Assembly: GCA_973895155.1 (NCBI GenBank)
Contig: OZ316892.1
Location: 3,971,223 to 4,035,222, forward strand
Reading direction: 5' to 3'
DNA from: Marsupella aquatica
Lineage: Eukaryota; Plantae; Marchantiophyta
DNA length: 64,000 nucleotides
Positions 8,072-63,703 of the stretch are shown here, piece by piece. Position 1 is the first letter of the stretch; each line of letters opens with the position of its first letter. Under the pieces are notes generated by a model. The model had not been told where the DNA came from. It ran no database searches and worked only from the letters and a program-made list of their open reading frames with translations. The translations under genes and the position numbers were made by a program.

Positions 8072-8613
8072 GGTGTATTTCTCGTCTCTCTCTTCATTGC
8101 GCGTTTTTGGGGATCCTGGACTTCGAAATCGATCAAGCTAGTCTCCGTTGGAGCTCGACATTTCGTTCTTTTGCTCACTTGCTGGCTTCGTTTGATTGTC
8201 TCGGTACTCAGCCTCGTACGTGACCTAATTTCACGAACCTTACTTTTCTAGTCTCGGTGCGCGGAAAACAATTGCTTGTTATCTGCAACCCGCGATTGTG
8301 GTTCGTGTCTTACCCGGAAATCCTATCGTATTTCCGCTTCGTACTGTCTCTCGTTGAGGACGAGGGCTAGCCGACGTGAATCCCTGTCGTAGGTGAGGAG
8401 CGAGGAACGGGATTCTCAGATTTTCGGAGGAATCACTTCACCTGCGGAGGATGACTATCGACGAACTCGGCTAGAGCTCGTTTTTACTTTCCACTTGTCT
8501 GAGCAGTGTATCGCTCCGAATTCAATGTCAGGTGGGTCTTGATCTGATTTCTCGTTCTTCTTGCGGAGAAACTGTTGAAGAGTTCGATTTGTGCTGTCGA
8601 TCCGTCGGGCGGG

Positions 8614-21600: not shown

Positions 21601-22631
21601 ACAGATTCATTGATAGGAGTGTAGGATGAGAAAAGTTCACGCATATAGCACATGTGATACGAGCAAGCGGAATCCAAGATCCATTGACAATCCTCAACTT
21701 GGGAAGTGGTACACAATGCAAATCCTTCACTATCCTCTTCTCGAATAACTACTTGGGCTGAAGAACCGAAAACTTCCTTGAATGTATCTTTGACGCAACA
21801 ATCCTTCTTCATCTGGCCCACTTTGTCACACTTCCAACACTTTATCTCTCGAGTAGACTTGGATGGTGATTTGGATCGAGATCTAGATCTAGATCTAAAC
21901 CTGCTCCTACCAAATGATCGCTCTTGGAACCTTCCTCGCTCCATGGGTAGAGGGTTAAACCTTTTATTTTCATGAAATGGCTCCCTTCTCTTGCCTATTT
22001 CTACCAACAGTGTTGTTGATGATGACGTTGAGGTAGGATGAGTTGAAGAAACCAGCTTAGACTGCATATCATTGGTCAACAGGGCACTCACCACATCATT
22101 GTAGGATATAGTGGTCTTATCATAAAATAGAAGAACTCGAGACAAAGTTTGGTACGATGGTGGTAGTGAACTCAAGAGTTGTAAGGCTTTCTTTTCTTCG
22201 CTCAAATGTTCCCCCAAATTCTCTAGGTCAACCACAAGATCATTGAATTGATCGATATGATCTTGAATCTTGACTCCATCTGCCATTTTGAATTGCATGA
22301 GCTTCAGGCTTGCATACATTCGGTTTGGCATCTCCTTCTTGTAGTACTTGTTGCGCAATGCTTGAAACAAGTCCATCACCGTTTGTGTTGTTTTTTCCTC
22401 GAACTGCTTCTTCACATTGTTTTTCAGGTACATGCCAACAATACTTACCGCTTGATCCTAGAGATTATGCCAATCATCATCTTTCATCTCCTTGGGTTGA
22501 GATCTTAGTACCTTGCCTAGGCCCATCGCCCTAAGTGCATCCCTCACGTTACGTTCCCACATTGCATAGTCCATCAGACCATCAAATTTTTCCACCTCAA
22601 ACCTTTGACCTCCAATCCTAGTAGTCGCCAT
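18602..22631 (-). pseudogene. Copia gag-pol polyprotein, disrupted
   Basis: Start MATTRIGGQRFEVEKFDG at 22631. Motifs: zinc knuckle CWKCDKVGQMKKDC, protease WILDSACSYHM, integrase HSDVWGP and LRSDNGGEY, RT LYVDDML, RNaseH GYVDADYAGD. In-frame stops at ~22458, 19703, 19259 and ~19148; frameshifts near 21290 and 20950. Confidence 0.93.
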
Positions 22632-30077: not shown

Positions 30078-33000
30078 ATGGACAAGTCTCTTAAAGCCTG
30101 TTGCACGGTGGGGTCTGTGGAGGATAAGGAACCGAAGTATCTGCTGCACGGTGTTCTAGAGATAACTATCGATGAGTTGAAACTCGAGAAGCTGTCTAGC
30201 AGCGTGTGGGCGGTACGTTTCCTTCCAAAATTTTCCTCCAGGCCAATCTGCCCTGCATGTCAATTACTCATCTTGAAAAACTGGTCACCCTCAGCCAAAA
30301 TAATGGATTTATTACCTCTGGTTGGGGAATATGGTGTCAGAGGATGTGGACTCCCTAGTCATGATGAGGTTTATCGTTTTGGGGACGCAGGAAATTAACG
30401 ACCACAGGGGAGGATGCCATGTGACTGTACAACTTCCACCAGTCAAAATAGGCAAGACAACAGCCCAGCGAAGTCACAAGGGAAGGGTGATCTGGCAGGA
30501 AACCCTTCGAGTCTACTGTGCGAATAATGTCGCTCACGTAGTCTTTTCTATGAATGGTCATGGATATAAAGGGACTGCACGAGTTTTGGCCTCTGAGATC
30601 TTCGAGAAGAGACATTTAGATGGCTGGTTTAGTGTGGATGGCAACTTTAAAAGTCACGGGAAGGTCCACATTGTACTTAAGTTCCTGCCTGCCAGTGAGG
30701 ATCCTCTGTGGGGTGCGGGAGTTGGTGATGCGTCGTCTTTTCAAGGTGTACCGAATACCTTCTTCCCAATGCACAAGGGATGCAGGGTGACTCCGTACCA
30801 AAATTCGCACGTAGAGGACGATTTTTTGCCCCCAGTTGCTTTAGCTGGAGGGAAGCCATATAAACCCGGCAAGTATTGGCAAGAGCTCCACGAGCATATT
30901 CGCCAAGCCAAAAAAATAGTGTATATTGCAGGTGCAACTCACGAGGAACTTCTGCTACCACTTTGGTGAATCTAGCTGCATATGCATGTTTATATCAGGC
31001 ACCATGGAATAGACCATAAATTCTATTTCAAGTGCTACTTTAATTGGCGGACCAAAACGTAGAAGGAATGATGAATTACTTGGAGTCCATTATCATAGAT
31101 ACTGCTTTGGTGGGACACGGGAAAAGGTAGATTTGGGGCGATTGGTAGCCTCCTGTTTGAGAATTGTACCTCGGCTTCATGATTACAGTGATAAAGTCCC
31201 AAGATCTTCTTTTCACAGGCCGAAAAAGAACAAAATAAAGGCATGAAAAAGAATTGACATAAAAATTATCGTTGGAGTGATTTTCTGTGGACAATTTCTG
31301 CAACATTTGCTCACAAAAAATACAATGGGGTTCATCTGTGATCAGTCTTATTCTCATTTGATTTGAATGGTGCCTTTCTTGCACGGTTGTCGGTAACATG
31401 TTCGATTAAATAAATGTTAATCCTTTACAACTGGCAAACGAGGTGATGACTAATCCGAGAAAACATGCCTTTTTACATTACCTGCAGGATGGTCTATGTT
31501 TGCGGAGATAGCCCTCGTCAGGGGGCCTGGAGGGGAGTGGCTAGGAGAGTCTCTACAAACTCTGCTCATTAGGAAAGCAGAAGAGGGAGTGTCAGTTCTG
31601 ATTATGATATGGGATGACAAGACCGACAACCTCGATGGGCTGATATCCAAGCAAGGCATGATGCACACTCATGATGAAGACACCCACAAATCATTCATGG
31701 ATTCAAAGGTGAAGGTGTTCCGGTGTCCCAGAGACCCAAAGCATGGCGCTTTCCACTTAGTAGATGGCTTCGTATTTACCCACCATCAAAAGGCAGTGGT
31801 GCTAGATGCTCCTGAGCTGAATCCCAGTAGCAGCAGGCGACGTCTGATTGCGTTTGTGGGTGGCATTGATCTGTGCGGTGGGAGATATGACACTCCTACA
31901 CACTCTCTCTTCCGCACCTTGGACACTGTGCACAGCCGGGACTTCCATCAAGAGGTCCTTCCCGGTACTCCTCTTGAACCAATAAGTACATCTGTCTGTG
32001 ATGGTCCCACTTCTATTACTTTCAGTAGAACCTCTGTAGTATTGTGGATGATTTCCTTTCATGCTTGTACGTTCTGATGATGGCTACAGAGCAATCTCCT
32101 CCCCTCCTTTTACTAGCTGGAGCCAGTAGGATCTGAAAACCAATTTCCATTTACTGTCTCCCCGACTATCATTTAAATCAAGACTATTAGAAAACGAATA
32201 TCTGAATGCGTGCTCAAGTTGAGTTCTTGTCCTTCCTATGGGATTGTGGACTTTGGTTCAACTCTTTTGTTGATAAGTACCTTTTTTTCCGTGCCGCGTT
32301 GAGGATCTGTGGACTTTAATTTAAATTTCTTCGTGAGTGCATTCATTCGTTCGTTTTCTGGAAGCCTTTGAAGCCGTCAGGTATATATTATTATGCAAGC
32401 TTCGCAACAGAAGAGAGTCTCTATATCTTTTGCATTAACCGTGCCTTTTATATATAAAGAACGGGGATGGTGATGAAATCGTCCAACTATATGCATTCTC
32501 AGGTGCCAAACTTCAGAATGGTGGGCCGCGGCAGCCATGGCATGACATTCATAGTAAGCTAGAAGGTGCAGTGGCGTGGGATGTTTACACCAACTTTGTA
32601 CAGCGATGGAGTCACCAAAGTGGAGCGGAGAATGCAAAACTGCTCGTTAGCGTCGATGATGAGACAGTTTTCTGCCCTCCTTCTCCTGTTGACAGTGAGC
32701 AAGACCTTTCAACATGGAATGCCCAAATCTTTCGATCAATAGACTCGACCTCACTGCAATTTCCTACTGATTCTGAGAACGTTTTCAAGAAAGGATTTAT
32801 CAGGAAGCACAGTCATGTTGTAGAACGGAGTATTCAGGTAAGTCTTACCTTGCGCTTGACTTATTGCTCAGTTCTTATTGTTCGTTCTTAGTCGAACACG
32901 GTAAGATCGTATCATGATGCGTATTGTTTGCTTATTGTTTTTTTATGATTTACATTTTTTATATGGTTTTTCTCTTGACATCCCGAACTGTGATTGCCCC

Positions 33001-34624
33001 CAGGATGCTTACATCTGTGCAATTCGACGCGCTAAGCGATTTATTTTTATCGAGAATCAGTACTTCATGGGGAGCTCCTTTGCGTGGAGAGATGACCCTG
33101 CATGGGAGAGCTACATAGCAAACTTAATCCCAGTCGAAATTGCGCTCAAGATTTCTAGCAAAATTCGGGCAGGTGGGAAGCTTTGTCCACGTTGTCTGAG
33201 AACATCCTCTACTTCGAATTTGGTAGTAAAATCAGTCAAGTTCATGATATCTTGTATTTTGCTTAGTTGTCTCTATGAACAATCATAGTTCGTATAAGAC
33301 TTGAGATTGGACTCTGTATTTTGTAGTGTTTCCAGCATAAAGGACACGTTTGTATACCACCTTTGAACATGTGAAGGTGCTCATCATAGATATCAGTTGG
33401 TTGGAGTTTTCTGCTAAGTACTCGTGTGTCTTCGATAGCGTCAAGTGAAGAGACGGCGCAATATTTAGTTGAGCTGAATCGGGCGCGAATACATCGTACG
33501 CAAAGGAAGACAATCGCCATCAACTGGCCAAAACGTCTTGTATCTGTAGACACCTTAGCGAACCCAATTCGTTCAGGTCTTTTGGCTGGGAATACTGTTT
33601 GGGTTTCTACATATAGTGCAGTGGATGCCCCTGTAAAATTTGATGAGCCAACCGAAACTTGATAAATTGATTTTTTGTTACAGGAGAACGCTTCTCTGCT
33701 TACGTCATCATACCTATGGCACCAAATGGACCAGTTGGTAGTACATCAGTCCAGGATCTTCTTCACCATCAGAGGAAAACAATGGAAATGATGTACAGCA
33801 TTATCCGAGAAGCTTTGGAAGATCAAGGTCGATTTGGAGAGCATCCTACAGATTTTCTGCGCTTCTTCTGCTTGGGTAACAGAGAAGCCAAGACGAAGTC
33901 TGAGTACAAGCCACCCGAAGGTCCTCCAAAAGATTCCTACTATGCAAGAGCCCAGGAGAATCGTCGCTTCCCAATATATGTACATGCCAAGTTGATCATT
34001 GGTGAGTTCGATCGAGATCACAAGCTCTGGGAATAATTTACATTTCAAAATGCCTGCTAACCTCTTACTTGTGGACAATGCATCCCCTTCTTATCAATCT
34101 TCACTATGTAGTCGTTTTATTTTCTAAAGTGCCAGGAAAGGCTGTATATGACGTTGGCCTGATATTTGTTTGCAGTGGACGATGAGTATCTCATAATTGG
34201 ATCAGCCAACATAAATCAACGAGCCATGGATGGAGCTCGTGATACAGAGATGGCGGTGGGTGCCTTCCAGCCTTTCTTCACTATCTATAATGCTCTGGAC
34301 AAGGACACACCTTGCGGTGAGGTCTATGCCTTTCGTATGTCACTATGGTACGAGCACCTCGGACTTTTGGACCCAGTGTTTGAAAAGCCCTGGGAATTGG
34401 AGTGCATGAAGAAAGTGCAGGAGCTGGCTGCTGAGAACTGGGTTGATTACATTAAACCAGGACCTCCTACTGACCTCAAGAGACATCTCCTTGCTTACCC
34501 AGTGAAAGTGGCTAGAGATGGGCGAAAGATTTATACAGAGCCTGGGGATGAACACTACCCTGACACAGAAGCCCCCATTTTGGGTACTGAAAGCCCGCGT
34601 CTTCCTGCGATGTTGACAGCTTGA
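30078..34624 (+). CDS. PLD: C2-domain phospholipase D (PLD alpha/delta-like), 7 exons, ~807 aa
   Basis: Exons 30078-30212, 30391-30931, 31488-31964, 32503-32837, 33004-33172, 33684-34001, 34176-34624 (2424 nt, in frame). HKD1 [43 protein letters not shown]2 [18 protein letters not shown]. Confidence 0.95.
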
Positions 34625-45659: not shown

Positions 45660-46036
45660 AGCTGATCTTGCGTTTCTGGAGGGATACCATCTGCCAGGAA
45701 GCTCGACAAGCCCATCAAAAGACCTTCCGTTCCTTCAAGGATAGCCTTTGCGTCTTCAAGGTGCGCAAGGAACCAGAGACAGTGCTGCTCATTATTGCAA
45801 AACAGGCGATCGTGCAAGGCCGCATACTTCACAAGGCCAGCTTGCCCCTTCTTCGTTGGCAATAGTGAGCTTGAGAAAGTTGTTCTGGCAGCCAGATTTT
45901 GAAATACAAGAGCTGCAAGTTCTTGCACTCGAGGCATCTCTTGCGCATGGTCGTTGCTACCTCGTTCCCGGACCAACCTGCATGATCCAAGGGCATATTT
46001 ATCTGCTGATCCAAGTGGGCACAACAGAGCCAGAGT
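45660..46036 (-). pseudogene. Relic of C-terminal ARM repeats from the hydrolase-NB-ARC-ARM family
   Basis: LWFLAHLEDAKAILEGTEGLLMGLSSFLADGIPPETQ matches copy A LWFLAQFEEAKSILEGNEGLLMGLSSLLADGVPPETQ; frameshifted. Confidence 0.75.
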
Positions 46037-46188: not shown

Positions 46189-49100
46189 CTATTTGAGTTT
46201 GTAACCCAGGTATTCTACGGGGCTTACTCCTAAACATTGACCCGTTTGGTCGTCCAGCTGGTCAACCCCTGGAGGTTTGATTCTAAGCGCCCACTCTGCA
46301 TCTGTTCGAGCTCCATCCTCATCCCCTAACAAGAATTTCACGTAGCCGCGGTGTTTCAGGCGCTCATAGTCGTCTGTTTCAAGTTTCAACCCTTCGTCCA
46401 AATCTGCTAGGGCACCCTCCAGGTTCCCCATCATTCGTTTCACCACACCTCTTTCTTGCAAAGAAAAAGCCTTGTGAGAATGGCTGTCGCTGACATTGAT
46501 AGCCTCATTGGCATCGGCAAGCGCCCCTTCAAGATCCCCAAGCTTTGATTTCACAAAACACCGTAGTCTGCCATCAAAGACAATACATTTAATACTGATT
46601 GAACATGTTTTGAAAATCATAAACAAAACTTGGCTCTTCGATTGCGAATTTGCTGGCACTAAATTTCGACATTACCTAGGCAAGTAAATCCAATGCAGGA
46701 CGTTATGAGCAGACGTCTACAATTCAGATTTTGTTCCGACTAGCTTTAGAAAGTAGAACTCCATCACCTAGAAGTCGCATTTGGGATGTCTTTGATCCAA
46801 TCTAATATGGTTAGCTACTGCGACTAATTAAAAGTTAAGAGTTCTCCCTTCCCGTTGAATTGTTTTGGGGACTTCAGTCACTAACCACTGTTAGTCGGAG
46901 AAGTCGAACCTTCTGACTTACCCAGTTGTAAGCAGAACGAGCGGAAACGCATCTTAGAATTCTAGAGAGAGTCCGGTCTGCTAGATCAGATCATCCCCTA
47001 AATCATGACGGTGAAAACTGCATGACTACACGGCCGACTTTCTCAATCCACTCTCATTGAATGGCACTGATAGTATGATAGGACCGATAGTCATATCGGT
47101 CTGCAAAGATGAATACTATTTGCGCATATCTTTGTCCCTTGGACTGGGATCTTCATGTTGATGAATTAATTACAATTCACGTACCTTAAATTGCCCAAAT
47201 CGGCTCCGTGTACTAGGTCATCCGCGTGACCAAGATCAGATAAGGATTCCGTGTACATTCCCATCAAGATGAATGCATCGGCCCTTCCTCGATAAGCCCG
47301 TGCGGAGGTCAAACTAGCTTGCTGGCCTTTTAAGGGGTTTATGAAAGTTAGCACGCCTGCCCCGATGTATTGCGTTTCTGGAGGAACACCATCTGCCAGC
47401 AAGCTTGACAAGCCCATCAAAAGACCTTCGTTTCCTTCCAGGATTGACTTTGCCTCTTCAAACTGCGCAAGGAACCACAAAGACATGGCTGCCTGTTTTT
47501 GCAAATCAGGGCAATCGTACAAGGCGAGACACATCACAAGGCCAGCTATTGCCCCCTCTTCTTTGGCGATACGGAGCTTGAGAGAGTTATTTCCTGTGAC
47601 AGCCAGATTGTGCAATGCTCGCCCTGCTTGACATTGAACTTTAGGCTTCTTGGCGGCAGACACGACCTTCGACAAGCTGGCCAAGGCACCCCCCTCATCA
47701 TTTAGAAAGTACGTTTGAGTCCGCATTGTGCCCGCTAGATTTGCCAAAGCCATTGTAGCATACTCTTGCAGTTCAGGACAGTCGTTGTCGATGACACACT
47801 TCATAAGATGCTCCAGTGCACCCTCTTCCTTTGCTATATGAAGCAGGAGAAAGTTGTCGTTTGTATTAGATAGAACTACAATTGCCCTTGCTGCTGCGGT
47901 CTGCACGTCAGGCTTATTGTCCGCAAATAAGAGCTCCACCAGACCCTTGAGGGCTCCCTTTTCATTAGCAACGGTCCACCTGATATGATCAGTGTGGGCT
48001 AGATTTGCAAGAGTATTCGTTACCCTTTTCTGCAAGTCAGGGCGGTCGTACAAGGCCAGACACGTCACAAGGCCAGCTAGAGCCCCCTCTTTGCCAGCAA
48101 TACGGAGCTTCAGAAAGCTATTTCCTGTGACAGCCAGTTTGTGCAATGCTCGCCCTCCTTGACATTGAACTTTAGGCTTCTCGTGCGCAGACACGACCTT
48201 TGACAAGCTAGCCAAGGCACCCTTATCATTTAGAAAGTACGTTTGAATCCGCATTGTGCCCGCTAGATTTGCCAAAGCCATTGTAGCATACTCTTGCAGT
48301 TCAGGATGGTCATTGTCGATGACACACTTCATAAGATTCTCCAGTGCATCCGCTTCCTCCGAAATAAGAAGCTGAAGATCATTGTCGTCTGTAGCAGATA
48401 GACCTACAATTACCCCTGCTGCTGCGGTCTGCACTTTAGGATTATCCTCCGCAACTAAGAGCTTGGCCAGGCCCTTGAGGGCTCCCTCCTCTTTAGCAAT
48501 GGTGGACCTGATAGGATCTATGTGAGCTAGATTTGCAAGAGTAACTGCTACCCTTTCTTGCAAATCAGGGCGATCGGACAAGGCCAGACACTCCACAAGG
48601 CCAGTTATTGCCCCTTCTTCATTGGCAATATGGAGTCGGAGATGGTTATCTCCTGTGACAGCCAGATTGTGCAATGCTCTCCCTGCTTGACATTGAAGTT
48701 TAGGCTTCTTGTGGGCAAACACGATCTTCAACAAGCTAGCCAAGGCACCCTTTTCATTTAGAAAGTATGTTTGAATCCGCACTGTGCTGGCTAGATTTGC
48801 CAAAGCCCTCATAGCATTCTCCTGCATTTCAGGGTAGTCGTTGTCCATGATACACTCCATCAGGCCCTTCAGTGCACGCTCTTCCTTCGCAATAAGGAGC
48901 TGGAGATCGTTGTCGGTTGTAGCAGATAGACCTACAATTGCCCCTGCTGCTGCTGTCTGCAATTCAGGGTTATTCTCAGCAAATAAGAGGTTCACTAGAC
49001 CATTGAGAGCTCCCTGTTCCTTAGCAATGGTCCACCTGACAGGATTTGTGTGGGCTAGATTTTCAAGAGTATTCGTAATCCTTTTTTGCAAATCAGGGCG

Positions 49101-52100
49101 GCCGTACAAAAGATACTTCACAAGGCCAGCTACCAACCCCTTTTCATTGGCAATACGGAGCCGAAGCTTGTTATCTTTCGTAGCAGATAGATTTAGCAAT
49201 GCCTCAGCTCCAGCTATTTGCACTTCAGGCTTATTGTGTGCAAAAAAGAGCTTCACAAGGGCATTGAGGGCTCCCTCTTCATTAGTAATGGCCCACCTGA
49301 TAGGATCTGTGTAGGCTAGATGTGCAAGTGTTTTCGCTACCCTTCCTTCCAAGTAAGGGCAATCATACGAGACCGGACACTTCACAAGGCCAGCCACTAC
49401 CCTCTCTTCGATGCCAATACAGAGCTTATTCAAGACCAGACACTTTACAAGGGCAGCTACTACCCCCTCTTCTTTGGCCACACGGAGCTTGAGATTGTTA
49501 TCTTCCGTAGCAGATAGATTTAGCAATACCCCTGTTGCTGCTATCTGTCCTTCAGGCTTGCTGTTGGCAGCCAATACGAGGTTCTTGAGGGCAGTGAGGA
49601 CTCCCTCTTCATTAGCAATGATCCGCCTGACAGGATCCGAGTGGGCTAGACTTGCAAGAGCATTCGCTACCCATTCTTGCAAATCAGGGCGGTCGTACAA
49701 GACCAGACACTTCACAAGGGCATCCACCAGCCCAACTTCCTTGGCAATACGGAGCTTGAGATAGTTATCTTTCGTACCAGATAGACATAACAATGCCTCA
49801 ACTGCTGCTATCTGCACTGCAGGCGCGTTGTCCGCCGATAAGAGCTTCATGAGAGCATTAAGGGCTCCCACTTGATCAACAATGATCAACCTGATATGAT
49901 CAGTGTGCGCTAAATTTGCAAGAGTATTCAATACCTTTTCTTGCAAATCAGGGCGGTCGTACAAGACGAGACACTTCACAAGGCCAGCCACTGCCCCCTC
50001 TTCGTCGGCAATGCGAAGCTTGACATGATTATCTGCGCAACCAGCTAGATTTTGCAACACTAGTGCTGCTCGTTCTGGCAGAGAAGAATTGTGGTGTGCA
50101 GATAATAGGTCCACCAACCTGACCAATACGTCCTCTTGATTGGCAATCCTCAATTGTATTGAAACAGATTGGCTATTCGCTAGGCTTGCTAATGCCCCCG
50201 CTGTATATGCTCTCACCATATCTGACAGGTGACTGGAGGCAAGTGAACTGACCAGGACCTGCAAAACACCGGGTGTGTCTACAATTCCCAGTGTTGAATT
50301 CTCTTCTCGAGCTTTCCAACAAATTCTGCGCAAGGTTTTGATTGCTTCCTCTTGAACTTGAGTTGGGAAACCCTCATTGAATCGTAGCAGATGCACAATT
50401 GCTTGCAAGAAGTTAAGATTATTTCTGGTGAATAAAGGCTTCTCTTCTATGACGCAAATGTCCCCAATAACTTTGAGAGTGGCCAACTGAGCCGGAGTAC
50501 ATACATCCAACTTCAGCAAGTGCGATATACTCACGTCCTCAAGCTGATGGTTGCAGATATATGTCAGAAGGACCTGCCATAAAAATACCAATTTCCAAGA
50601 GATTAAAATAGCAAACATAATGCATCTTGAATTGGTTGCTAATGACAAGTTCCAACTCCAATTTTAAACTAACAGAAAGACGAATATCGCAAGTTTCACA
50701 TCACATTTCGCATCTCCAACCAAACAATTCAAAATATACAATTCACCAAGGGACATCAATTCACAAATTTATATTTGAGCAATACTTTCAATTATTACAA
50801 TTTCAGTAAACCATGATTCAAGCTCCAGCAGGAAAAACACCTTTCTAACACACTGTACGTCTGAGTGTGTCCATTTTCCCTCCTCGACTGGCTTGTCCAA
50901 CATCCAGATAATGGGCTCCACTGCTTTCCGTCTAAGATCATGCACATTATCATAAAAATCTGTTGTATTGCTTGCAATACCAGCCCGAGTCATTGCATGG
51001 GTACCATCAATGTGCTGTCGGTCAAAGTACAGAGCACATAGAGCAATTGCTACTCTTCTCTTCTCACCCTGGTTTTCCTCTGTTTCAAAATGCCCTTCCC
51101 ATCCAACACTCAAGTCTGATGTAGATTCTTCACTGCCAAGCAATTCGCCAATTAGACTTCTGATTTCCCCTTTGCCAACCATGTTTTGTTGCATATAAAG
51201 CTTCACTAGAGACCGTAGTGACCACATGGTGGTCAACTGTTCTGTGTCATCGTTTTGGCCCATGCCCTGCATATCTGTTGTGCGGGCTGCCGTTTTCCCT
51301 GAATTTCTTTTCACTAGTTCTCTCATACGCAATTCGTCCAAGGACTTCATGAATGGGGACCTTGATGTCTTCATCCTGGTTTTCATGCTAGTATGCCAAA
51401 GTCTAAGAACTATTTCAGGTACTAATTCCCCTTTACAAGCATATATCAAGGAAAGTATGTTTTTCGCATCATCAGTGTCCAAAGATTCTATGCAGATTTT
51501 CATAGCAGCGCATAGACTTCGAGGAGCAGACTCAGTATTCCCTATCACAATGTTAACCTCTGCGCTATCCAGTAGTTCTTCTAAGTCTCTGAAAGCTCCT
51601 TGCCATGCTCGTTTGTCTTCATTATCTTGGCTGTAATCGAAATGACTAGCCAAACATGCCAATGCCAATGGATTTCCTTCTGTGATTTCAATCATGTCCT
51701 TGGCTATACCCTGAATTCAAGAGGACAACAAAGAATGCCTGAATGAGAAACTGTTAAGGGGTGCATGATAATAAAAGATAATGTAACGAGCGTGAGCTCT
51801 ACCTTAAGATTTATTTTGCATAATTTCTTTAAAACAAACTAGCCGAAATTTTGAACTTGCCCATCAGTGAAACATTTGAACCTCTAAGTGGTTGGGGAAA
51901 GTCAAAGAAGCACACCTGTAATTGCTCGGGTATAACTTTCCCTTCTAAACGGACATGAGAGGCAAGAATAGCCTTAGCTTCCTCTTCTGTGGGATCTCCC
52001 ATAGCAATACAGAATGAATCATTTTTAAGGTTACAGCAGATATTTGATCTTTGCGAAGTGACAAGATACTTCACATGTTTGGATCCCTTGACAACCTCCC

Positions 52101-54301
52101 ACATTGCAAATAAAAATCTCGGATCTGAAACATCATCTAAGATTATCAAGATATTCTTGTCAACAACGAAATGTTGAAATGCTGTTGCAACTCGGCTACT
52201 TAGCGAGCTCTTCTCCTGAGGTAGGGTATCCCCCAAACTATTAGGAGAATGGTCTGCCAAAACTTCATATTGCTTGTTGCAAGTATCCTTTACTGAACAC
52301 TTTGCACACGAAAGCCAGATCACATGCTCGAATAAGTTGCCATTTTCTCCATCTTTCCCATAACGCTCATACATGTACCGTGCAAGTGTTGACTTGCCTT
52401 TGCCTACTCCACCATGAAGCAAAATCACGTGAACTCCTTCAGGTTTTTCGATTTCTCGAATGACTTCGTTGTGTGAACTTTGGATTGGCACATAAAACTG
52501 TTCATTATTGAGGACTGACGTTGGTATGGCTAAGCCTGTATGTGATCCTTTCTGCAAAGTTTGATGATGGGCTCCCGCCAAGTCTGTTTCTTCCTGTGCC
52601 TCACCCTCTCCCTGGATTCCAGCAAGACAAGTTATAATAAAGCTTTAATGTTTTAGATGCGAAATTTAAGGACATGTAAGAAATACCCTACAGATTATTA
52701 CGATGATCGCTTGTTGTGCCAAATATCAAATATAACATGAATCACATTCCTGAGCAGTCTTGAAGAAGTACATTTGATAAACCTACCTGCAACGTTGTCA
52801 CAATGTTGTCAACGAGGGTTTTCAAGTGGTAGAACCTCTTGTCAATTCTGCTCCTTGGTTGACAAATTGAACTGTGATTAGCTATCACAATCAGGAAATG
52901 ATTCCCTTGTCTTGATGATGCTTCAGGTACTTCCACTTCATTGGAATGATTGAATAGAATGTTCCCAAGACAGTTCCAAAATCCCCTCCACTATTCTTGC
53001 AAAACGGTCAATTTACGTCACAGATTGCACTTGCTTTACAAAAACTCACATATGGGCAATCAGCAAGACTGGGATTCAAGCATTTGAAAGCTTTTCGAAT
53101 TAATAGATGCGGCTTACTTAATGGCTCTGTATCTAAGAAGAGATGACCATCAATATAACCATTAGATAAGGTAAGAGGTCCTTGAATACTTACTGATATA
53201 AAGGGAGGAGATGCACCAAGTCCAAAGATCAGCCACTCGTATGACAACCCCACATCCTCAAACTCTGAGTTCAAACGTTCTGCTTTATCATACAAACTCC
53301 CGAAGTACTTAAACAAAGGGCCAGTTGCTGCCTTTACAACACCGGAACTCCCATGATGAGGTGTACTGTAATAAAATACCCCTCTGATGTTTCTCAAAAA
53401 CTTCCCCAGCTTCTCCTTATGATTTGTGGGAGCTTTATTTGAATAGAGCTTGTAATGTGCTTGGCAACATGTCTCCTTGATCACCAAGCCCCCAACACAA
53501 TGACCCACCAAGATTACAGGGCAAGAGGGTATTTGCCCAATGCCACCTTGCAGAAGGTCAGATATCAAGTTTTCCCCCAACAAATACAAGTCGAAAATTC
53601 TAGCACATGCACTATAACTCACGCTCAATATGTGCGCCTCGGGGAAGAAATCAGGCAACCATTCCTGTGGCCAGATACAGGAGTCATCTGCGCTTTTCCA
53701 GGTCGATACATGTGCATCGACAAGTCTCCAGGCCCTAAACCATGGAAGAATAAGACTTGAATTTTGGGAGTCTCCTCAGGCTTGTATAATTCATACAAAG
53801 AATCATTCACCTGTCAGCACCGATGAGACCACCGTTAAGAAATCTAGAGAAGGATCATCGTTTCCAGTTATTCAAGGACCAGTCTGGAAAGCAAAGTGGC
53901 TGTCAGATATCCATTATCGTCGCAGTTATCACTGTGCCCTCAAAATTGCTAAAAGTAAACTCACAGGCTGACGTCGAAGTTATCATCGTTCCCTCGAAAT
54001 GCTAAATAGAACATTCATTGACAGTTTAGCTAGACATAAACGAGGAGTGGACCCGTGTTCACAATGTAACCAAGTTTGACACATGCCTTGTATTATCAAA
54101 ATAGTCATAACTTCGAAATGAAACTGAGTAGTGAGGCAGAGTTGAGGTTGTTGCTTTTGCACAACACAGACACGGAACGAACACAAAATACTTCACATTC
54201 GTCAAGACCAGGTTTCTGGAGGGCGCACTCACCTCACGAACTTCTTTCCTTCTGTTAGATGCAGAAGGCTGGGGAGATCTGGAAGAGGAGCCCTGGAACA
54301 T
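46189..54301 (-). CDS. NLR-like alpha/beta-hydrolase - NB-ARC - ARM array - TPR protein (copy A), ~2,074 aa, with one 1-bp frameshift (possible pseudogene or assembly error)
   Basis: Exons 54301-54233, 53810-53194, 52990-52787, 52611-51916, 51710-50841, 50573-47185, 46567-46189, all GT-AG; total 6224 nt, 1 nt short of an open frame. Hydrolase FFHGL, WPQEWL, GHCVGGLVIKE, YYSTPHHGS, NHSSICQP. Walker A GGVGKGKST, Walker B ILIILDDV, KYLVTSQ, GNPLAL. About 25 ARM-like repeats, then about 4 TPR-like repeats (GDLEGALAD.. twice). Confidence 0.85.
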
Positions 54302-54566
54302 TTTGGTTCGCTTGATACCGAGAATTGTTATCAGAGCTACCTTGGGATTTAAGTTCTTGAGGCGGACTGCATGCATATGCCTGTGGGACAAATCAGAAAC
54401 ATCTCGTAAGCCTGAGTGGGGGGTGAGGGAAAATGCTTTTAAGGGATTCCTGTGGTTTTCACGACTGCCAATACTTCCCTTTAAGGTCATCCCAGCAGGC
54501 GAGTAGCCCCAGACTGCTTCAGTGTAGCTCACAAATCATCCTAAGGACACAGAGAAGCCTGCTTTC

Positions 54567-54830
54567 GTACCGATGAGATTTCTTCTGTTACCAGTACCGA
54601 TGAGATTTCTTCTGTTACCAATCAAGTCGGACACAAAGTTGTCGCATGGACAGGAACAACTCACATGCTCCCGTTTCATCTGTGACAAATTGACTTGGGC
54701 TTCCCTATGGCTTGAGCTGCTATTCAAGACCTCTGTAACTTGATTGAGTTACTTATTGACAGTAGATGGTCGATCTTCCCTATTGTAACTTGGTTGAATT
54801 ACTTATGGACAGTAGATGGTCGATCTTCCC
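54567..54830. repeat. Two short tandem duplications upstream of copy A (27 bp x2 and 50 bp x2)
   Basis: gtaccgatgagatttcttctgttacca twice; tgtaacttg.ttga.ttacttat.gacagtagatggtcgatcttccc at 54734 and 54784. Confidence 0.85.
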
Positions 54831-56254
54831 AATTAATACTAACTAAGTTTAGATGGTGAACCAACTCCAGAGGGTAGACCTTGGGATGTAACGCCTACAT
54901 ACACGAGTCTAGCTGTATAGCAATAACAATGACTGCGTCAGCTCTACTTCAGCTCTTTGGATTGTGCAGGCGACCGATTCTATTTCATATGCAAGGGCTG
55001 GATTAGATTTCTAAGATCTAGCTTTTTAACATCTGATGACCGGCCTTTGTCAATCCTACGACTTCGCTGCTATCTTAGTGCTAGACCTCATATAGAATAA
55101 GTAGTCGAGATAATGTGGTTAGCCATAAGAGCACATTGAGCTTCAGCTCCAAGTTTTCAATTGCAGGCATCCCGACCAACTGGTTAACTCAGCAGTGACC
55201 ACGAACTAGTCTTTCCATGATTCCTCGATAAGAAGAGATGCACGTATAGTTGAGAGTTTCTAAATTCCTTAGCGATGGAAAGAGATCGCGACTCCCCATA
55301 CTTAGAAAGGAACACTGTTGGAGTGTTGCGTAACCAACTCCAAGCGAGATAAGCTGTGGAGTAGAAACGAATAGAAAGCAATACTCTAGTACGCATCTGA
55401 CGCAAGGCTATAAGTAAAAACGGGACCTCAATGCCGTCCACATTCGAAGGAAACAAATCAGAGTGACGAGCAGATTTGAGGGAACGCTCCTTTACACACG
55501 GATCAGCTGCTAATCCGACATTAGAACAGAGGAACAGAGGAACAGTCACCGTGATCTTTGCGTATTGCTAGCATGTTCAAACTTTATTTCATAAGAGACA
55601 GCCAAAACCCGTGCAATTACCTCAACTTAATAAAGGTTACGTATATACCTCTTTCAGAACACTTTGTCGCGTCGTGTAGATCTTTGCTCGGAGCTTGCTC
55701 CCCGACCTTGCCCAGTTCCGGCATCTACTGTACAGAAACGAAGCCGGGACTTTGACATCGCTTTCCACAAGTTTGTTGATAGAAACAGCGGATTTGATTA
55801 GATCAGTAACGTCTGGCCAGGGCACTTCAGGTCCACAGACTCGCAGTCAAGAAATCTTATCACCAAACAAAGCGCTTCGAAATGACTTCAGAAACGTCAT
55901 CAGACCCGAACCAATCAGGCTCAACAACACTCATATCGGTCAAAGTTCTTCTCCAACAAACAAATTCACGGTTCGGCGAGCTCATGAACTGCCGGCCATG
56001 TCAATCAATCACACTCCGACCAGGCTAGGCTAAAAAGCTATGAGGACATGGACAGAAAGGCAGGAAGGACGGATCGGGGCACTTCGGATCATATCATCTT
56101 CATCGATCGCCAATTCTGGTGTCCACTAATCACAAACGGCAAGGATGGATGATGCAGCTTGAGCGTAAGCATACAAAAGGTGATGAGAGTTGGAGAAGAG
56201 TGAATGAGGGCCTCCGACGTCCGAAGGGCACAATGCTTCTCCAATCCCCACACA

Positions 56255-57030
56255 TATTTGGTCGAGAGAAGTCTACAGTCCACACCCCTCTAGCTGTACT
56301 CCACCCAAGGAAACGAACGACATATTTTGTCGAGAGAAGTCCACAGGACCACAGTCCACACCCCTGTAGCTGTACTCCACCCAAGTAAACGAAATTTACG
56401 CACACCCCTGTAGCTGTACTCCACCCCAGGAAACGAACGACATATTTTGTCGAGAGAAGTCCACAGTCCACACCCCTGTAGCTGTACTCCACCCAAGTAA
56501 ACGAAATTTACGCACACCCCTGTAGCTGTACTCCACCCAAGGAAACGAACGACATATTTTGTCGAGAGAAGTCCACAGTCCACACCCCTGTAGCTGTACT
56601 CCACCCAAGTAAACGAAATTTACGCACACCCCTGTAGCTGTACTCCACCCAAGGAAACGAACGACATATTTTGTCGAGAGAAGTCCACAGGACCACAGTC
56701 CACACCCCTGTAGCTGTACTCCACCCAAGTAAACGAAATTTACGCACACCCCTGTAGCTGTACTCCACCCGAGGAAACGAACGACATATTTTGTCGAGAG
56801 AAGTCCACAGTCCACACCCCTGTAGCTGTACTCCACCCAAGTAAACGAAATTTACGCACACCCCTGTAGCTGTACTCCACCCAAGGAAACGAACGACATA
56901 TTTTGTCGAGAGAAGTCCACAGTCCACACCCCTGTAGCTGTACTCCACCCAAGGAAACGAACGAGTCGAGAGAAGTCCACAGTCGACACCCCTGTAGCTG
57001 TACTCCACCCAAGTAAACGAAATTTACGCA
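56255..57030. repeat. Higher-order tandem array: 29-bp core alternating with two linkers (112/120-bp period)
   Basis: Core cacacccctgtagctgtactccacccaag at 56281, 56357, 56401, 56469, 56513, 56581, 56625, 56701, 56745, 56813, 56857, 56925 and ~56985. Confidence 0.95.
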
Positions 57031-57311
57031 GTCCGATGTCTTGGTTTTCGGGTGGGCTAATTAAGGTCTTATGGGTCTGTGAGAATTTCTTGGTTTTCGC
57101 GTGGGCTAATTAAGATCTTATGGTTGTGATTAATTTAGATCTCTGATCCGTAGGAGGCATAGGCTCATGAAGATATTATGGCTGTGATAAGATCTTATGG
57201 TTGTCAGTAATTTGGATTAATATGAATCTGGTCCTCCGTATAGACCTGGTCCAAACATTGGGATTGAACTGACTAGTACATTTTACAATAGAGAAAAACC
57301 CTAAACCCTAA

Positions 57312-57547
57312 ATATCGTGCAAGGCCGCACACTTCACAAGGCCAGGTATTGCCCCTTCGTCTTTGGCAATAGTGAGCTTGAGAAATTGTTTTCTGTGGCA
57401 GCCAGATTTTGAACTACAAGAGCTGCAAGTTCTTGCACTCGAGGCATCTCTTGCGCCATCGTCGTTGCTACCTCGTTCCCGGACCAACCTGCATGATCCA
57501 AGGGCATATTTATCTGCTGATCCAAGTGGGCACAAGAGAGCCAGAGT
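57312..57547 (-). pseudogene. Second ARM-repeat relic, paralogous to 45808-46036
   Basis: Near-identical to 45808-46036 (gagctgcaagttcttgcactcgaggcatctcttgcgc...ctgctgatccaagtgggcacaa). Confidence 0.8.
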
Positions 57548-58872
57548 CCTAAAAAAAACTCTTAACGTTATGAACGCAATATACACGATATTCTATATGA
57601 TCCTATTCAACTCTAATTATTTCGGCTTTACAGGGAAACTGCATGTCAATCTAACTTGCTTACAATAACCTGATGATATTTTGAGGAAAAATATGTCAAT
57701 GACGCCAGATGCGGTGGCTATCACTGGCAAAATGCCTACCTGGAATCATCATGCTACTGCTGGGAGTTCCGTCGGATACCACCCTCTCATAGATAGAAGA
57801 TGGAGAGCGCTCCTGTTGTTCAATTTTACGAGTTGATCTTCTAGCCCCAACATATAGAAATCCGGATATCCGATTCAATGATGGTAAAGTCGGACCTGGA
57901 CAGGCCCCTTGATCGGAAAGCAGAAGCCTAAATCGCCACCCTTGTAAGAGATGTCGGACACAAGGTAAGCACTCCCACTGCCTGCATTTTACTCTGAGTG
58001 CTCCCGAGAGTGCTCCAAACCCTGCAAGAAAGAAACGACAGACATCAGCCCCACGCTTCAGTGTAACAATACTCTGTTTGAATTAGGAAGGCTCGTGGAG
58101 CAGATCCGACGACCATCTTGACAAATAAATCAGGAAGGACACATTTGAAGCTGGTGGAGACATAGAATGAATGGAAAAAGAAATTCTAAGCCCACGGAGA
58201 CAAAGAACTACTTATGGACAGATTTGAAGTGCAGACAGAAAGAACGATAAAATGAACAGTTATTCAACATAAAGGAATGAAGTAGGGTGAACAAACAGAA
58301 TTTTTGCTCAAGGGGATAGAGAGCAAAATTTAGTCTATTTTCAGTCATCGGTAATCAACAACGGATGAAGCCAAAGGAGTTGAAGCACACAGGGTCACGG
58401 AGCGAAAGAATCAACAGACCAAGAACAACAATAAAGCAATGAACACACCAACCTTGACTCCTGGAGACAAAACGAATAAATGTGACCTTCCGGTTGCTCT
58501 CTTGCGCACCTGGCACCGTTGTACAATAGCGCATCCCGTGCACAATTTGCGATACAATATCAATAAATGCTCAGTTCGCAGCATGGTCACTTGATTCGAT
58601 CCTCATAGACGTTTTAGTATCCTACGTAATGGCGAGAGCCTACGACTTGAATTTGTTTACTCACAGTGCGGGATGTCATGGCTGTAATGAAACCAGCAAG
58701 CTTTCATGACCGATATCTGACATAAACAAATTTAGCACAGTTTCAACCAAGGATCATGGCAAAGAAGGAATGTTGTGCCACAAAGCTGACAACGTGTGAC
58801 ACTGATCGAACTATCGTAGCCAATGTGTTTTACGGGGCTTACTCTTAAGTATGGATGTGCTACGTAGTGCTG

Positions 58873-60607
58873 TCAGCTGTCAACCCGTGGAGGTTTGATT
58901 CGTAACGCCGACTCTGCATCTGTGCGAGCTTCATCCTCATCCTTAAACAAGAATTTTACATACGCGCGGTGTTTCAGCATCCAATAGTCATCGGTTTCGC
59001 GTTTCAACCCTTCATCCAAATCTGCTAGAGCACCCTCCAGGGCCCCCTTCATTCCTTTGAACACACCTCTTTCTTGCAAGGCAAAAGGACTTGAAAAATT
59101 GCTGTCGCTGACATTGACAGCCTCATTGGCATCCTCAAGCGCCCCTTCAAGATCTCCAGGCTTTGGTTTCACAAACCGCCGTGGACTGCCATCAAAGACA
59201 CCACATTCAATACTAATTGAACAGGCCACTTACAACATGATAAACAAATCTTCACTACAATTGCAAATTTGGCCGGCACTGGATTTCGACATTACGCAGG
59301 CAAGTAAATCCAATGCAGGGTGTTATGAGCAGAAGTCTCCAATCTACGTTTTATTGCGACTAGCTTTAGAAACGTTAGACTCCATCACACCTAGAAGTCA
59401 GTTTTGGGATGCCTCCTATCCTGGTTAGCTACTACGAGTGAATTAGAAGTCAGAATTATAGATTGTCCTTGGATTGTGTTGGACTTCTGTCACTAGGTAC
59501 TGTTAGTCGGAGAAGTCGAACCCTCTTTGTAAGCAGAACGAGCGGAAACGTATCTTTGAATTCTAGAGAGAGTCAGGTCTGCTAGATTGGATCATCCCCT
59601 GAATCATGATAGTGAAAACCGCATGACGACACTGCCGAGTTTCTCAATCCTCTGTCTCATTGAGTAGCACTGATCATACCATGAGAGGACCGATACCCAT
59701 CCATGCCTATCTTGATCGAAATTGATATTATTTGCGCATATTTTTGTCACTTGGATTGGGATTTTTCATGTTGATGAATTCAAATCAATGCAGTAGAGGG
59801 TGGGAGTTTTGTACAGTTTATATTCACGTACCTTCAAATTTCCGCACCAGCTCTGTTGAGTACGTCAGCTACAAGATCAAGGTCAGATAAGGCTTCCGTG
59901 TACATTCCCATAAAGATGAATGCAATGGCCCTTCCTCGATAACCCTGAGCGGACGTCAACTGTGGGATTTATCAAAGTCAGGGCGCCTGCTCCGTATTGA
60001 GTTTCTGGAAGGACACCACCAGCAAGCTTGACAAGCCCATCAAACACCTTCTGTTTGTTGAGGCATCGCCTTTGCCCATTCAAACTGCGCGAGGAACCAC
60101 AACCCTAAACCATGCTGCCCGTTTTTGCAAAACATGGCGATCATGCATGTCAAACAACTGTACAAGGCCACCTATTGCCCCCTTTCATTGGCAACACCGA
60201 GTTTGACAGAGGTATTTTTTGTGGCAGCCAGATTTCGAGATAAACGGGTTTCCCGTTCTTGCAATCTAGGCTTCTGGTGTGCAGACAACAGATTTGCCAA
60301 GCTACCCAAGGCTACCTCTTCATTTAGAAAGTATTGTGGATAGCCACTGTGCTTGCTAGATTTGTCAAACCCACTGCATGACTGACTTCATGTGCGTACC
60401 AGAACAACGGTAATGCTCTTCCTCAGTAACACGGAGCCTGAGATTGTTATCTTCCGTAGCATATAAACTTATCATTGCACGTAATGCTGATGTCCCCACT
60501 TCAGGCTCGTTGTTCGCCAATAAGAGCTTCATGTGGGTATTGAGGACTTCTCTTCACTAGGAATGCTCTACCTGATAGGATCCGTGTGGAATAGATTTGT
60601 AACTTCA
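58873..60607 (-). pseudogene. Decayed 3' part of copy B (last ARM repeats, last intron, TPR exon)
   Basis: Colinear with 46189-47700 of copy A but with several frameshifts. The TPR exon (GDLEGALEDANEAVNV...) stops early at 58873. Confidence 0.8.
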
Positions 60608-63600
60608 TTATGGTCCACCTGACTGATCCGTGTGAGCTAGATTTGCAAGAGTCTTGGCTACCAGTTCTTGCAAATGAGGGCGCTCATGCAAGGCCTGACA
60701 CTTCACAAGGCCAGCTACTACCCCCCTTTGGTTGGCAATACGGAGCTTGAGATCCTTATCTTTCGTAGCAGTTAGATTTTCCAATGCCCTTGCTGCTGCT
60801 CTCTGCAATTCAGGCTTGTTGTCCACCAACAAGAGCTTTGCCAGAGCATTGAGGACTCCCTCTTCATTAGCAATGGTCCAGCTCATACGACCTGTGAAGG
60901 CTAGATTTGCAAGAGTACTGGCTACCCGTTGTTGCAAACCAGGGCGATCATAGAAGGCCAGACAGTGCCCAAGGCCAGGTACTACCCCCTCTTTGTTGGC
61001 AATATAGAGTTTGAGATCCTTATCTTTTGTAGCAGATAGATTTTGCAATGCCCTCACTGCTGCTATCTGCACTTCAGGCGTGTTGTCCGCCAATAAGAGC
61101 TTTGCGAGGGCATCGAGGACTCCCACTTCATTAGCAAGGGTCCAGCTCATACGACCTGTGAGGGCTAGATTTGCAAGAGTATGGGCAACCGTTTCTTGCA
61201 AACCAGGGAGGCCATACAAGGCCAGACACTTCCCAAGGCCAGCTACTACCCCCTCTTTGTTGGCAATAAGGAATTTGAGATCGCTATCTTTCATAGCTGA
61301 TACATTGTGCAATGCCCTGGCTGCTGGTATCTGCAGTTCAGGCTTGTTGTCGGCCAATAAGAGCTTTGCCAGGGCATTGAGGACCACCTGTTCCTGAGCA
61401 ATGGTCCAGCTGATCGGATGTGTGTCGGATAGATTTGCAAGAGTATTGGCTACCCGTTCTTGCAAACTAGGGCGATCATAGAAGGCCAGACAGTGCCCAA
61501 GGCCAGCTGCTACCCCCTCTTTGTTGGCAATAGAGAGCTTGAGTTCCTTATCTTTTGTAGCAGACAGATTTTCCAATGCCCTCGCTGCTGCTGTCTGCAC
61601 TTCAGGCTTTTTATCCGCCAATAGAAGCTTTGCTAGGGCATCGAGGACTCCCGCTTCATTAGCAATGGTCCAGCTCATACGACCTGTGAAGGCTAGATTT
61701 GCAAGAGTACTGGCTACCCGTTGTTGCAAACCAGGGCGACCATAGAAGGCCAGACAGTGCCCAAGGCCAGGTACTACCCCCTCTTTGTTGGCAATAGAGA
61801 ACTTGAGATCCTTATCTTTTGTAGCAGATAGATTTTGCAATGCCCTCACTGCTGCTGCCTGCACTTCAGGCTTTTTATCCGCCAATAGAAGCTTTGCTAG
61901 GGCATCGAGGACTCCCGCTTCATTAGCAATGGTCCAGCTCATACGACCTGTGAGGGCTAGATTTGCAAGAGTACTGGCAACCGTTTCTTGCAAACGAGGG
62001 CGGCCATGCAAAGCCAGACACTTTCCAAGGCCAGCTACTACCCCCTCTTTGTTGGCAATGCGGAGCTGGAGATCGTGATCTTTTGTAGCAGATAGATTTT
62101 GCAATGCCCTGGCTGCTGATATCTGCAGTTCAGGCTTGTTGTCGGCCAATAAGAGCTTTGCCAGGGCATCGAGGACTACCTCTTCATTAGCAATGGTCCA
62201 GCTGATAGGATGTGTGTCGGCTAGATTTGCAAGAGTATTGGCTAGTACGCTTTCTTGAAAAGCAGGGTTGTCGTATAAGGCCAGACACTTCACAAGGTTA
62301 GCTACTGCCCCCTCTTCATCGTCAATCATACGGAGCTCATTGTGGATGATTGTTGAGGGGTTCAGTACCACAGCTGCTTGTTCAAAGTCTTGATGTTGGG
62401 CTCCAGGCAGATTTGTTTCTTGATGGACCTGAGCCTCCTCCTGGATTTGAGCAAGGTAGATTGTAAATAATTGTTGTCCTTACCCTAGAATTGAAGCATA
62501 CTTTTAGTGCCCTTTAGCAAGAACATTCTTCAAAGATGTCGGATATATATATCAAACATCAACTGTGAACATCATTTACTTGTTGAAGAACGGCAATGGA
62601 TACAACTTACGTACCTCCAACTCAATGGCAATGGTGTCAATAAGGTTTTTCAAGAGGGAAAACCGCTTGTCGATCTTGCTCTTTGGTTGACAAATGGAAT
62701 TGTGGTCAGCTTCCACGATAAGGAAGTTATCTCCATGTCTTGATGATGCTTCAGGTACTACCACAACATTGGAATAATTATGTTGACTCTGTCCATTCGA
62801 AAGAACAACATACACTTGATCATCAGTATCATCATAAATATTACTGCAAAACCCAACCACTTGCACCACTCCCATACGAACCTGTCAAATTCCATCAAAG
62901 ACTGCACAAAACTTACAACAAAACACCTATGAGCAATAAGCACGAGTGTAAGTAATGCATTAAAAACTGTTTCAGATAATAAATGTGCATTCAAATGTTT
63001 TGTTGATGAAACGAAATATGCTCAATATGCGTAATCTATAGATACAACCACTAGATACAGGAAGTGATCCTTGCACACTTACTGATGTTGTTGGGAGACA
63101 TTCGCCAAGTCCAAAGATTAGCCATTTGTACTCTGGCTGCACACCTTCAAACTTGAAGTTCAACCGCTCTGCATTTTCATTTAAAATCCTGAAGAATTGG
63201 AACAATGGGCCCTCTGTTGCTTTTGCAACAATAGAACTTCCATGATGAGGTGTACTGTAATAAAACATACCCCTTACGTTTCCCAGAAACATCTTAAGCT
63301 GCTTCTTTTTAATTGGAGTTCTACTTGAATGGAGCTTGAGCTGGTCATGTGCTTGGCAGCATATTTCTTTGATCACCAATCCTCCAACACAATGACCCAC
63401 CAAGATTACAGGGCAAGAGGTAATTTGCCCAATGCCACCTTCGAGAAGGTCAGATACCAAGTTTTCCCCTAATAGATGCATATCAAAAAATTTAGCAGAT
63501 GCACTATAACTCACTGTAAATATGTGAGCCCCAGGAAAGATATCGGACAACCATTCCTGTGGCCAGATGCAGGAGTCATCCTCGCTTTTCCAGGTCGATA

Positions 63601-63703
63601 TATGTGCATCAGACAAGTCTCCAGACCTCAAACCATGGAAAAATATAACTTGCAGTGTAGGAGTCCCCTCGGGCTTGTACAATTCATATAAATAATCATT
63701 CAC
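60608..63703 (-). CDS. Copy B: alpha/beta-hydrolase fused directly to an ARM array (NB-ARC deleted), truncated at 60608; first exon lies beyond the window end
   Basis: Exons 63703-63083, 62881 (or 62788)-62615 and 62440-60608 are in frame. Intact hydrolase FFHGL..WPQEWL..GHCVGG..STPHHGS..DHNSICQP, then about 13 ARM repeats in 88-aa pairs. Confidence 0.75.

Follow-up and report, generated by a model that had tools for sequence, protein, structure and literature searches.

A stretch of 64,000 nucleotides (nt) from the liverwort Marsupella aquatica (GenBank assembly GCA_973895155.1, contig OZ316892.1, positions 3,971,223 to 4,035,222; hereafter the window) carries on its minus strand, from 54301 to 46189, a gene that joins an alpha/beta-hydrolase, an NB-ARC switch, a long array of armadillo (ARM) repeats and terminal tetratricopeptide repeats (TPRs). 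We consider it probable, though far from assured, that the intact protein is a STAND immune receptor on an NB-ARC-ARM-TPR chassis, in which the coiled coil (CC) was swapped for a hydrolase of the type carried by HNLs, the bryophyte hydrolase receptors with leucine-rich repeats (LRRs), and that the window holds a frameshifted allele. Trees of the two domains show the predicted gene to be a chimera, its hydrolase and its NB-ARC being of different ancestry.

The gene has 7 exons and 6 GT..AG introns of 175-617 nt, with a coding total of 6224 nt, 1 nt short of a whole codon number. Its features are as follows:
54233..54301, minus strand: exon 1, with the ATG and 23 codons; junction matched by the Calypogeia fissa protein P0001.
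53194..53810, minus strand: exon 2, the main part of the alpha/beta-hydrolase, with the HG motif, a nucleophile elbow with Cys, and Ala at the predicted acid site.
53718..53720, minus strand: 1-nt frameshift in exon 2, covered by the read-derived contigs X1-X4; the frame is open in another haplotype.
52787..52990, minus strand: exon 3, the hydrolase C-terminus with the catalytic His; least secure acceptor.
51916..52611, minus strand: exon 4, an HNL-like linker (about 20 amino acids, aa), the inferred fusion point, then the NB-ARC nucleotide-binding domain with its P-loop at aa 364, Walker B at aa 451 and TSQ as RNBS-B.
50841..51710, minus strand: exon 5, the helical and winged-helix parts of the NB-ARC (GLPL-like motif at aa 541, LRS at the MHD position), then a helical region.
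47185..50573, minus strand: exon 6, 22 full ARM repeats, alternately about 43 and about 45 aa long, which include three copies of a 176-aa higher-order unit, and the first TPR.
46189..46567, minus strand: exon 7, three more TPRs, a conserved C-terminal tail and the stop.

The closest match found, C. fissa P0001 (1488 aa), is an unbroken hydrolase-NB-ARC-ARM-TPR model, a kinship that suggests a leafy-liverwort source for the window. It is 54% identical to the window model over 1375 aligned columns, which span junctions 1-5, and 67% identical in the NB-ARC. We conclude that the domain order, hydrolase - NB-ARC - ARM - TPR, is real; it is carried by a predicted seven-exon spliced model. The weakest junction is the exon-3 acceptor: an out-of-frame AG lies 5 nt upstream, and the position used as acceptor by a tandem paralog in the window is not AG in the main gene. 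The eight listed runs include no RNA set, and none of the contig joints in the aligned runs coincides with an intron, an observation with no bearing on expression. An earlier reading of the window, made without database searches (the sequence-only reading), had joined six open reading frame fragments through canonical GT-AG introns into a model of about 2,074 aa. The introns are all canonical, but they separate 7 exons that lie in 8 reading-frame pieces. The length is reproduced only by reading through a break in exon 2: the frame, taken to be intact, carries a 1-nt shift that had been overlooked, as had the altered catalytic triad.

Proteins of the type NB-ARC-ARM(-TPR) were found in C. fissa, Marchantia paleacea, M. 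polymorpha (MpNBS-LRR15), Riccia fluitans and R. sorocarpa, and the majority of them begin with a helical domain. We call these CC-type, a label given by eye together with the lack of a match to the hydrolase profile. The only one folded, P0004, has an N-terminus of four long helices, whose likeness to MLKL/RPW8 in the model (score 0.86, below 0.9) we take as a lead only. NB-ARC trees were built from 34 and from 51 rows, the latter chosen by us from about 98 proteins; P0015, P0028 and P0033 were dropped from the smaller tree because their P-loop was undetected. In both trees the window NB-ARC groups with CC-NB-ARC-ARM(-TPR) proteins (support 100/99 with 34 rows, 100/98 with 51), and the NB-ARCs of HNLs and those of the ARM clade form separate clades at 100/100. 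A phylogeny against HNL and NB-ARM proteins had been proposed with the sequence-only reading; the trees include the HNLs themselves and cover the NB-ARM side through these liverwort relatives. Among 20 proteins looked up by name, none was an RLS1 or a TNP.

In the 51-row tree the ARM clade holds 41 rows: 33 are CC-type, two have unknown N-termini, and six carry a hydrolase and fall in four places. One place is occupied by the window gene and P0001; another by P0007, sister of the CC-type P0004 (99/91), to which it is 81% identical in the NB-ARC. P0078 stands among CC-type rows, as sister of P0093 in the smaller tree (98/91), and the fourth place belongs to the Riccia proteins P0057 and P0070, for which the top five Pfam families listed include no ARM match. 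Approximately unbiased (AU) tests rejected a single NB-ARC clade of the window, P0001 and P0007 (p 0.0014), also when P0078 was added (p 0.0006). The groups for all AU tests were set by architecture, and the tests were run under LG+G4 after the first trees had been viewed.

The hydrolase tree, of 21 rows after exclusion of six near-duplicate or long-branch rows, gave a different picture from the NB-ARC trees. Here the window and P0001 are sister to the HNL P0019 (92/98), and P0007 is sister to the HNL P0033 (100/99); a single clade for the window, P0001 and P0007 was rejected (p 4.6e-5). The sequences also change allegiance at different points. P0007 matches P0033 up to residue 309 (59%) and the CC-type P0004 from residue 310 (76%), and it retains the end of the last CC helix at the junction. 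The window gene tracks P0019 to about residue 317 and the ARM clade thereafter, at a junction unlike that of P0007, and its likeness to HNLs is confined to the hydrolase and some 20 residues of linker. Since the NB-ARC lies in the ARM clade and the hydrolase is nested among those of HNLs, the alpha/beta-hydrolase likely came from an LRR-type (HNL) receptor and took the place of the coiled coil. The opposite event, an ARM+TPR solenoid replacing the LRR, had been proposed in the sequence-only reading and is contradicted by the grouping of the NB-ARC. Together, the trees, the AU tests and the differing junctions suggest that at least three separate hydrolase swaps likely took place in Calypogeia-type genomes, and perhaps a fourth in Riccia.

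Two further R. sorocarpa proteins, P0020 and P0061, combine a hydrolase that lacks both Ser and His with an HNL-like NB-ARC and, further along, another NB-ARC, which in P0061 is of the ARM-clade type; P0020 also has a second hydrolase. Both are probably fused adjacent genes, which would place both parents side by side.

Exon 2 gives a weak Pfam match to PGAP1 (E 0.078). The hydrolase of P0001, modelled with AlphaFold2 (pLDDT 83.9), has the alpha/beta-hydrolase fold (best Z 16.3, rmsd 3.9, 223 aligned), and the SERAC1/PGAP1-like (SesB-like) hydrolase named earlier is to this extent borne out on the C. fissa homolog. The fold search returned many ties among lipases and esterases (PGAP1 at Z 14.4), so the substrate is not readable from the fold. 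Residues Ser111, Glu206 and His243 of P0001 follow strands at the canonical topological places, the acid being assigned by topology and conservation only. Of the 21 hydrolase rows, 13 have Ser as nucleophile, six have Cys and two have Gly. Two Riccia HNLs, P0034 and P0035, have Gly at this position, and some HNL hydrolases therefore appear catalytically dead. A sequence search of solved structures with the hydrolase exon of the paralog gave no match, and the profile search was dominated by NB-ARC/LRR columns.

The NB-ARC claimed for the protein, a P-loop NTPase of the STAND class, was recovered in exon 4 by Pfam (E 1.1e-11, 44.9 bits against a cut-off of 23.5; P0001 scores 70), with P-loop and Walker B intact. 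The fold of nucleotide-binding, helical and winged-helix domains was observed on the CC-bearing relative P0004, whose model resembles resting NRC2 (Z 27.1, rmsd 3.6, 331 aligned) and ADP-bound Apaf-1 (Z 23.0). The canonical RNBS-B Arg and the MHD are replaced by TSQ and LRS in both the window and P0001, and the Arg and the MHD His are kept in all eight HNL and angiosperm rows. No TIR domain was matched in the scanned coding exons, of which exon 1 has only 23 codons.

Where HNLs end in an LRR, Pfam found Arm (156.7 bits, exon 6) and TPR_1 (30.4 bits in exon 7, cut-off 27.8). The array announced as about 1,100 aa of ARM repeats is present, but its regular part covers about 980 aa (aa 919-1900), with one partial repeat beside the full ones. 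The four TPRs, counted by eye, agree with the number proposed. In P0004, P0007 and P0078, near-identical ARM repeats differ at few positions, many of them in or just before helix 3. We compared six groove positions per repeat, set by ARM numbering, with the remaining positions in the window DNA. Among five 88-aa units of the paralog, nonsynonymous and synonymous differences (pN, pS) were 0.225 and 0.038 in the groove versus 0.103 and 0.159 elsewhere (permutation p 0.013); four tests in the main gene gave p 0.038, 0.17, 0.17 and 0.63. The pairs are not independent and surface sites are more variable in any case, and we take these values as a hint of groove-site diversification.

Compared with the paralog and with P0001, exon 2 is one base short near 53718, and the unedited translation ends after 84 aa. 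With an X placed at the break, the model runs through 2,074 aa with zero internal stops. Read-derived contigs were aligned to the locus, with four of the eight listed runs on the gene and four, three of which were also used on the gene, on the upstream part. Contigs of X1 (53499-55000) and X3 (53655-54279) span the frameshift site gap-free and match the window; both come from one study, possibly the source of the window itself. In X2 and X4, which belong to a different study and are labelled as another organism, a single contig over 53725 has one additional base at 53718 plus four linked substitutions. The X2 contig continues through intron 1 at about 99% identity and hence represents the same locus. 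We read these data as pointing to a null allele that coexists with a copy whose frame is open, the latter being another allele, a homeolog or the copy of a sister species.

An assembly error behind the frameshift is disfavoured by the gap-free X1 and X3 contigs, even though they may be the source runs. Rescue by splicing was rejected because the sole in-frame acceptor past the break, at 53664, would skip aa 24-72 including the HG motif, and rescue by a downstream start because the next Met is aa 377, after the P-loop. The window allele thus probably makes no full-length protein and is likely non-functional. Joints of the X2 and X4 contigs skip repeat-sized pieces (47984-48510 in X4, 49516-49815 in X2, and 59647-60205). 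They may reflect ARM copy-number variation, or artefacts of the assembly graph or of repeats; the joints at 47984-48510 and 49516-49815, with sides of 24-31 letters, were not used.

If the intact protein is a receptor of the kind we propose, the ARM/TPR solenoid would keep the switch shut and bind a pathogen or host ligand. Nucleotide exchange would then lead to oligomerisation, and the clustered hydrolase domains would produce a defence or cell-death output, acting where the CC acted before, probably by hydrolysing lipid esters in those proteins that keep a complete Ser-Glu-His triad. We infer these functional steps, and with them the enzymatic and immune roles, from known NLRs; published cell-death results for HNL hydrolase domains and for RLS1, given below, lend them support.

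Several observations weigh against this proposal. The window hydrolase has Cys as nucleophile and Ala at the predicted acid position, and with only His kept it departs from a Ser-acid-His triad. P0007 and P0033 likewise combine a Cys nucleophile with an Ala acid, and Cys is the nucleophile in four of the five hydrolase-ARM sequences. In the switch of the window gene, Gln stands in place of the RNBS-B Arg, which 23 of 26 ARM-clade rows lack, and LRS occupies the MHD position. Concerning ancestry, the Riccia proteins P0057 and P0070 are the first to split off within the ARM clade (96/81), which alone would fit an ancestral hydrolase, and the RLS1 sequence, from the rice NB-ARM protein, is outside both trees. 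As to the allele, the open-frame X2 contig has only 23 letters left of the indel, fewer than the 31 that the alignment tool requires for bridging, and may stem from a homeolog or a sister species. The groove tests are mixed, two of five permutation tests being below 0.05 and none after Bonferroni correction. Finally, any function of hydrolase-NB-ARM proteins is here a prediction from sequence and models.

The main rival explanation sees in the hydrolase an integrated decoy, or a pseudo-enzyme, that mimics an effector-targeted hydrolase of the host or of HNLs, the sensor signalling via a CC-type NB-ARM helper. The frequent Cys for Ser, the Ala at the predicted acid position in the window and P0007, the degenerate MHD and RNBS-B, the repeated capture of the domain and the CC-type sisters that remain in the same C. 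fissa proteome all speak for it. However, the hydrolase substitutes for the N-terminal domain instead of being added to it, P0001 retains Ser-Glu-His, all 21 rows conserve the His, and Cys is present already in P0019 and P0033, the closest donors among the HNLs. We regard the decoy as unlikely, while giving it more weight than any other competitor. That the fusions are neutral recombination by-products of clustered NLR genes, decaying without function, would agree with the frameshifted window allele, with a paralog that has lost its NB-ARC and whose tail has decayed, and with the two ARM relics that flank the genes. Yet the same fusion occurs, unbroken, in a C. fissa model whose NB-ARC is just 67% identical, the other 2,000 codons of the window gene are without an internal stop once the break is bridged, the hydrolase exon 2 gives dN/dS 0.31 against the paralog, the frame is open in another haplotype, and three separate fusions persist as models of 1455-1514 aa. 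This explanation is improbable in our view.

Lower still we rank a STAND regulator outside immunity, which might govern senescence, the turnover of chloroplasts or lipid metabolism and would have the hydrolase as the enzyme under its control. RLS1 was first tied to chloroplast degradation in leaf senescence (PMC10030324), and the fold matches lipases and esterases generally. Against this, the donor domains derive from NLRs, and the expanded family, the tandem copies, the models ranging from 1002 to 2160 aa with repeat number, the swaps and the polymorphic null allele fit birth-and-death immune genes. A hydrolase ancestral in the NB-ARM clade and repeatedly lost or replaced by a CC would explain why the hydrolase-bearing P0057 and P0070 branch first. 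It is scarcely credible given that the hydrolases linked to ARM arrays do not form a single clade (p 4.6e-5 and 3.0e-5) and are placed among different hydrolases of HNLs, and that P0007 keeps a CC remnant at its junction.

The main gene is accompanied by a tandem copy and by relics:
58816..63703, minus strand: tandem paralog, hydrolase exons 63703-63083 and 62788-62615.
62440-60608, minus strand: paralog ARM array of 88-aa units, joined to the hydrolase and followed by a stop.
45668..46036, minus strand: degenerate ARM-repeat relic downstream of the main gene.
57299-57547: ARM relic, of which 57314-57547 is 93.6% identical to 45809-46036.

In the paralog the linker runs straight into ARM repeats: the NB-ARC is deleted in frame and the ARM/TPR tail has decayed. 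An 876-aa frame extends from exon 2 to the stop, with the hydrolase intact and about 70% DNA identity to the main gene; the first exon was not located within the window. As judged from these predicted copies and relics, the locus shows birth-and-death behaviour. Two copies of the plant telomere repeat (57299-57312) lie beside the end of the second relic, possibly marking a healed break, and a satellite array with periods of 112, 232 and 344 bp occupies 56252-57021, between the two genes. Elsewhere in the window there is a Copia-type LTR retroelement (18602-22457, minus strand, several frames, gag and RVT_2 matches). Plus-strand neighbours within 2346-34624 comprise a ROH1/BPS1-like gene (2346-3428), an mTERF gene (8548-9654), a 2OG-Fe(II) dioxygenase (13964-15430) and a phospholipase D (about 30304-34624).

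Both parent types and the idea of N-terminal swapping are known, but this pairing and its recurrence did not turn up in print. In the literature searched, which covered few subscription journals, we met no account of a hydrolase-NB-ARC-ARM protein; the supplement of PMC11218826 may list cases. The sequence-only reading had recognised no named class for the four-part combination, and we found none either, but Table S3 of PMC12512272 already lists the NB-ARC-ARM-TPR chassis for Marchantia. That paper reports that rice RLS1 clusters with Marchantia (NBARC)(ARM)(TPR) proteins. None of the 62 rows of its CC-NB-ARM cluster in Table S3 gives a hydrolase (two cells are incomplete, Pfam often misses this domain, and no leafy liverwort was noticed in those rows). 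The clade of the window NB-ARC is probably this published cluster, on the basis of similar domain lists: that of P0013 resembles the list of one Table S3 member.

Members of the CC-NB-ARM group (RLS1 = LOC_Os02g10900; Marchantia Mp5g21860, Mp5g08960 and Mp5g10840) share with the window gene an NB-ARC followed by ARM repeats, and in Marchantia also TPRs; the window NB-ARC groups with Marchantia, Riccia and Calypogeia members including MpNBS-LRR15. Unlike the window gene they start with a coiled coil, and RLS1 has three ARM motifs instead of 22. ARM-type NB-ARC proteins are mentioned as rare (PMC8559963, PMC9825502), and a gain-of-function allele, RLS1-D, causes death resembling the hypersensitive response (HR) and resistance in rice (PMC10030324). 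With the bryophyte HNLs (Hyd-NLRs) the window gene has the hydrolase family in common, its domain nesting among C. fissa HNL hydrolases with the linker kept, but it is without an LRR, its NB-ARC belongs to another clade, and the RNBS-B Arg and MHD are lost. The hydrolase domains of two Marchantia HNLs cause HR-like death and ion leakage in N. benthamiana (PMC11218826). The same paper mentions NB-ARC proteins that end in other kinds of repeat and contains hints that hydrolases were gained independently in Sphagnum.

Fungal sesB-like/NB-ARC/TPR and sesB-like/NACHT/TPR(HEAT) NLRs (Podospora Pa_2_10340 and Pa_6_7270) offer the same layout of lipase-like N-terminus, STAND core and alpha-solenoid, and their hydrolases are about 30% identical. 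They differ in that the window NB-ARC and hydrolase are of plant lineages and its sensor is ARM plus TPR. For fungal sesB-like/NB-ARC/TPR proteins, PMC4986451 describes recent N-terminal swaps, internally conserved repeats and selection on the concave repeat face; such groove selection is shown there and only hinted at in the window gene. TIR-NB-TPR proteins (TNP) likewise combine NB-ARC and C-terminal TPRs without an LRR, but the window gene has no TIR and a long ARM array ahead of the TPRs.

It is possible, though we hold it with more doubt than belief, that liverworts run combinatorial receptors in the fungal style on an RLS1-type chassis, with fast-shuffling ARM arrays whose variable groove residues make them programmable sensors, a switch without the canonical MHD and RNBS-B Arg, and an interchangeable executioner, either a four-helix CC or a captured, often Cys-type, hydrolase. 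How the hydrolase domains of plant hydrolase-NLRs cause cell death is not understood, and few studies have dealt with the RLS1-type NB-ARM family. The window allele, being probably dead, is of lower direct value here. P0004 and P0007, with NB-ARCs 81% identical and different N-terminal domains, form a ready-made controlled pair, and P0001, with its Ser triad, set against the Cys variants would test the need for catalysis. Such a natural CC/hydrolase pair makes hydrolase-NLR signalling testable, and the repeated natural replacement of CC by hydrolase on one chassis suggests that the executioners are interchangeable.

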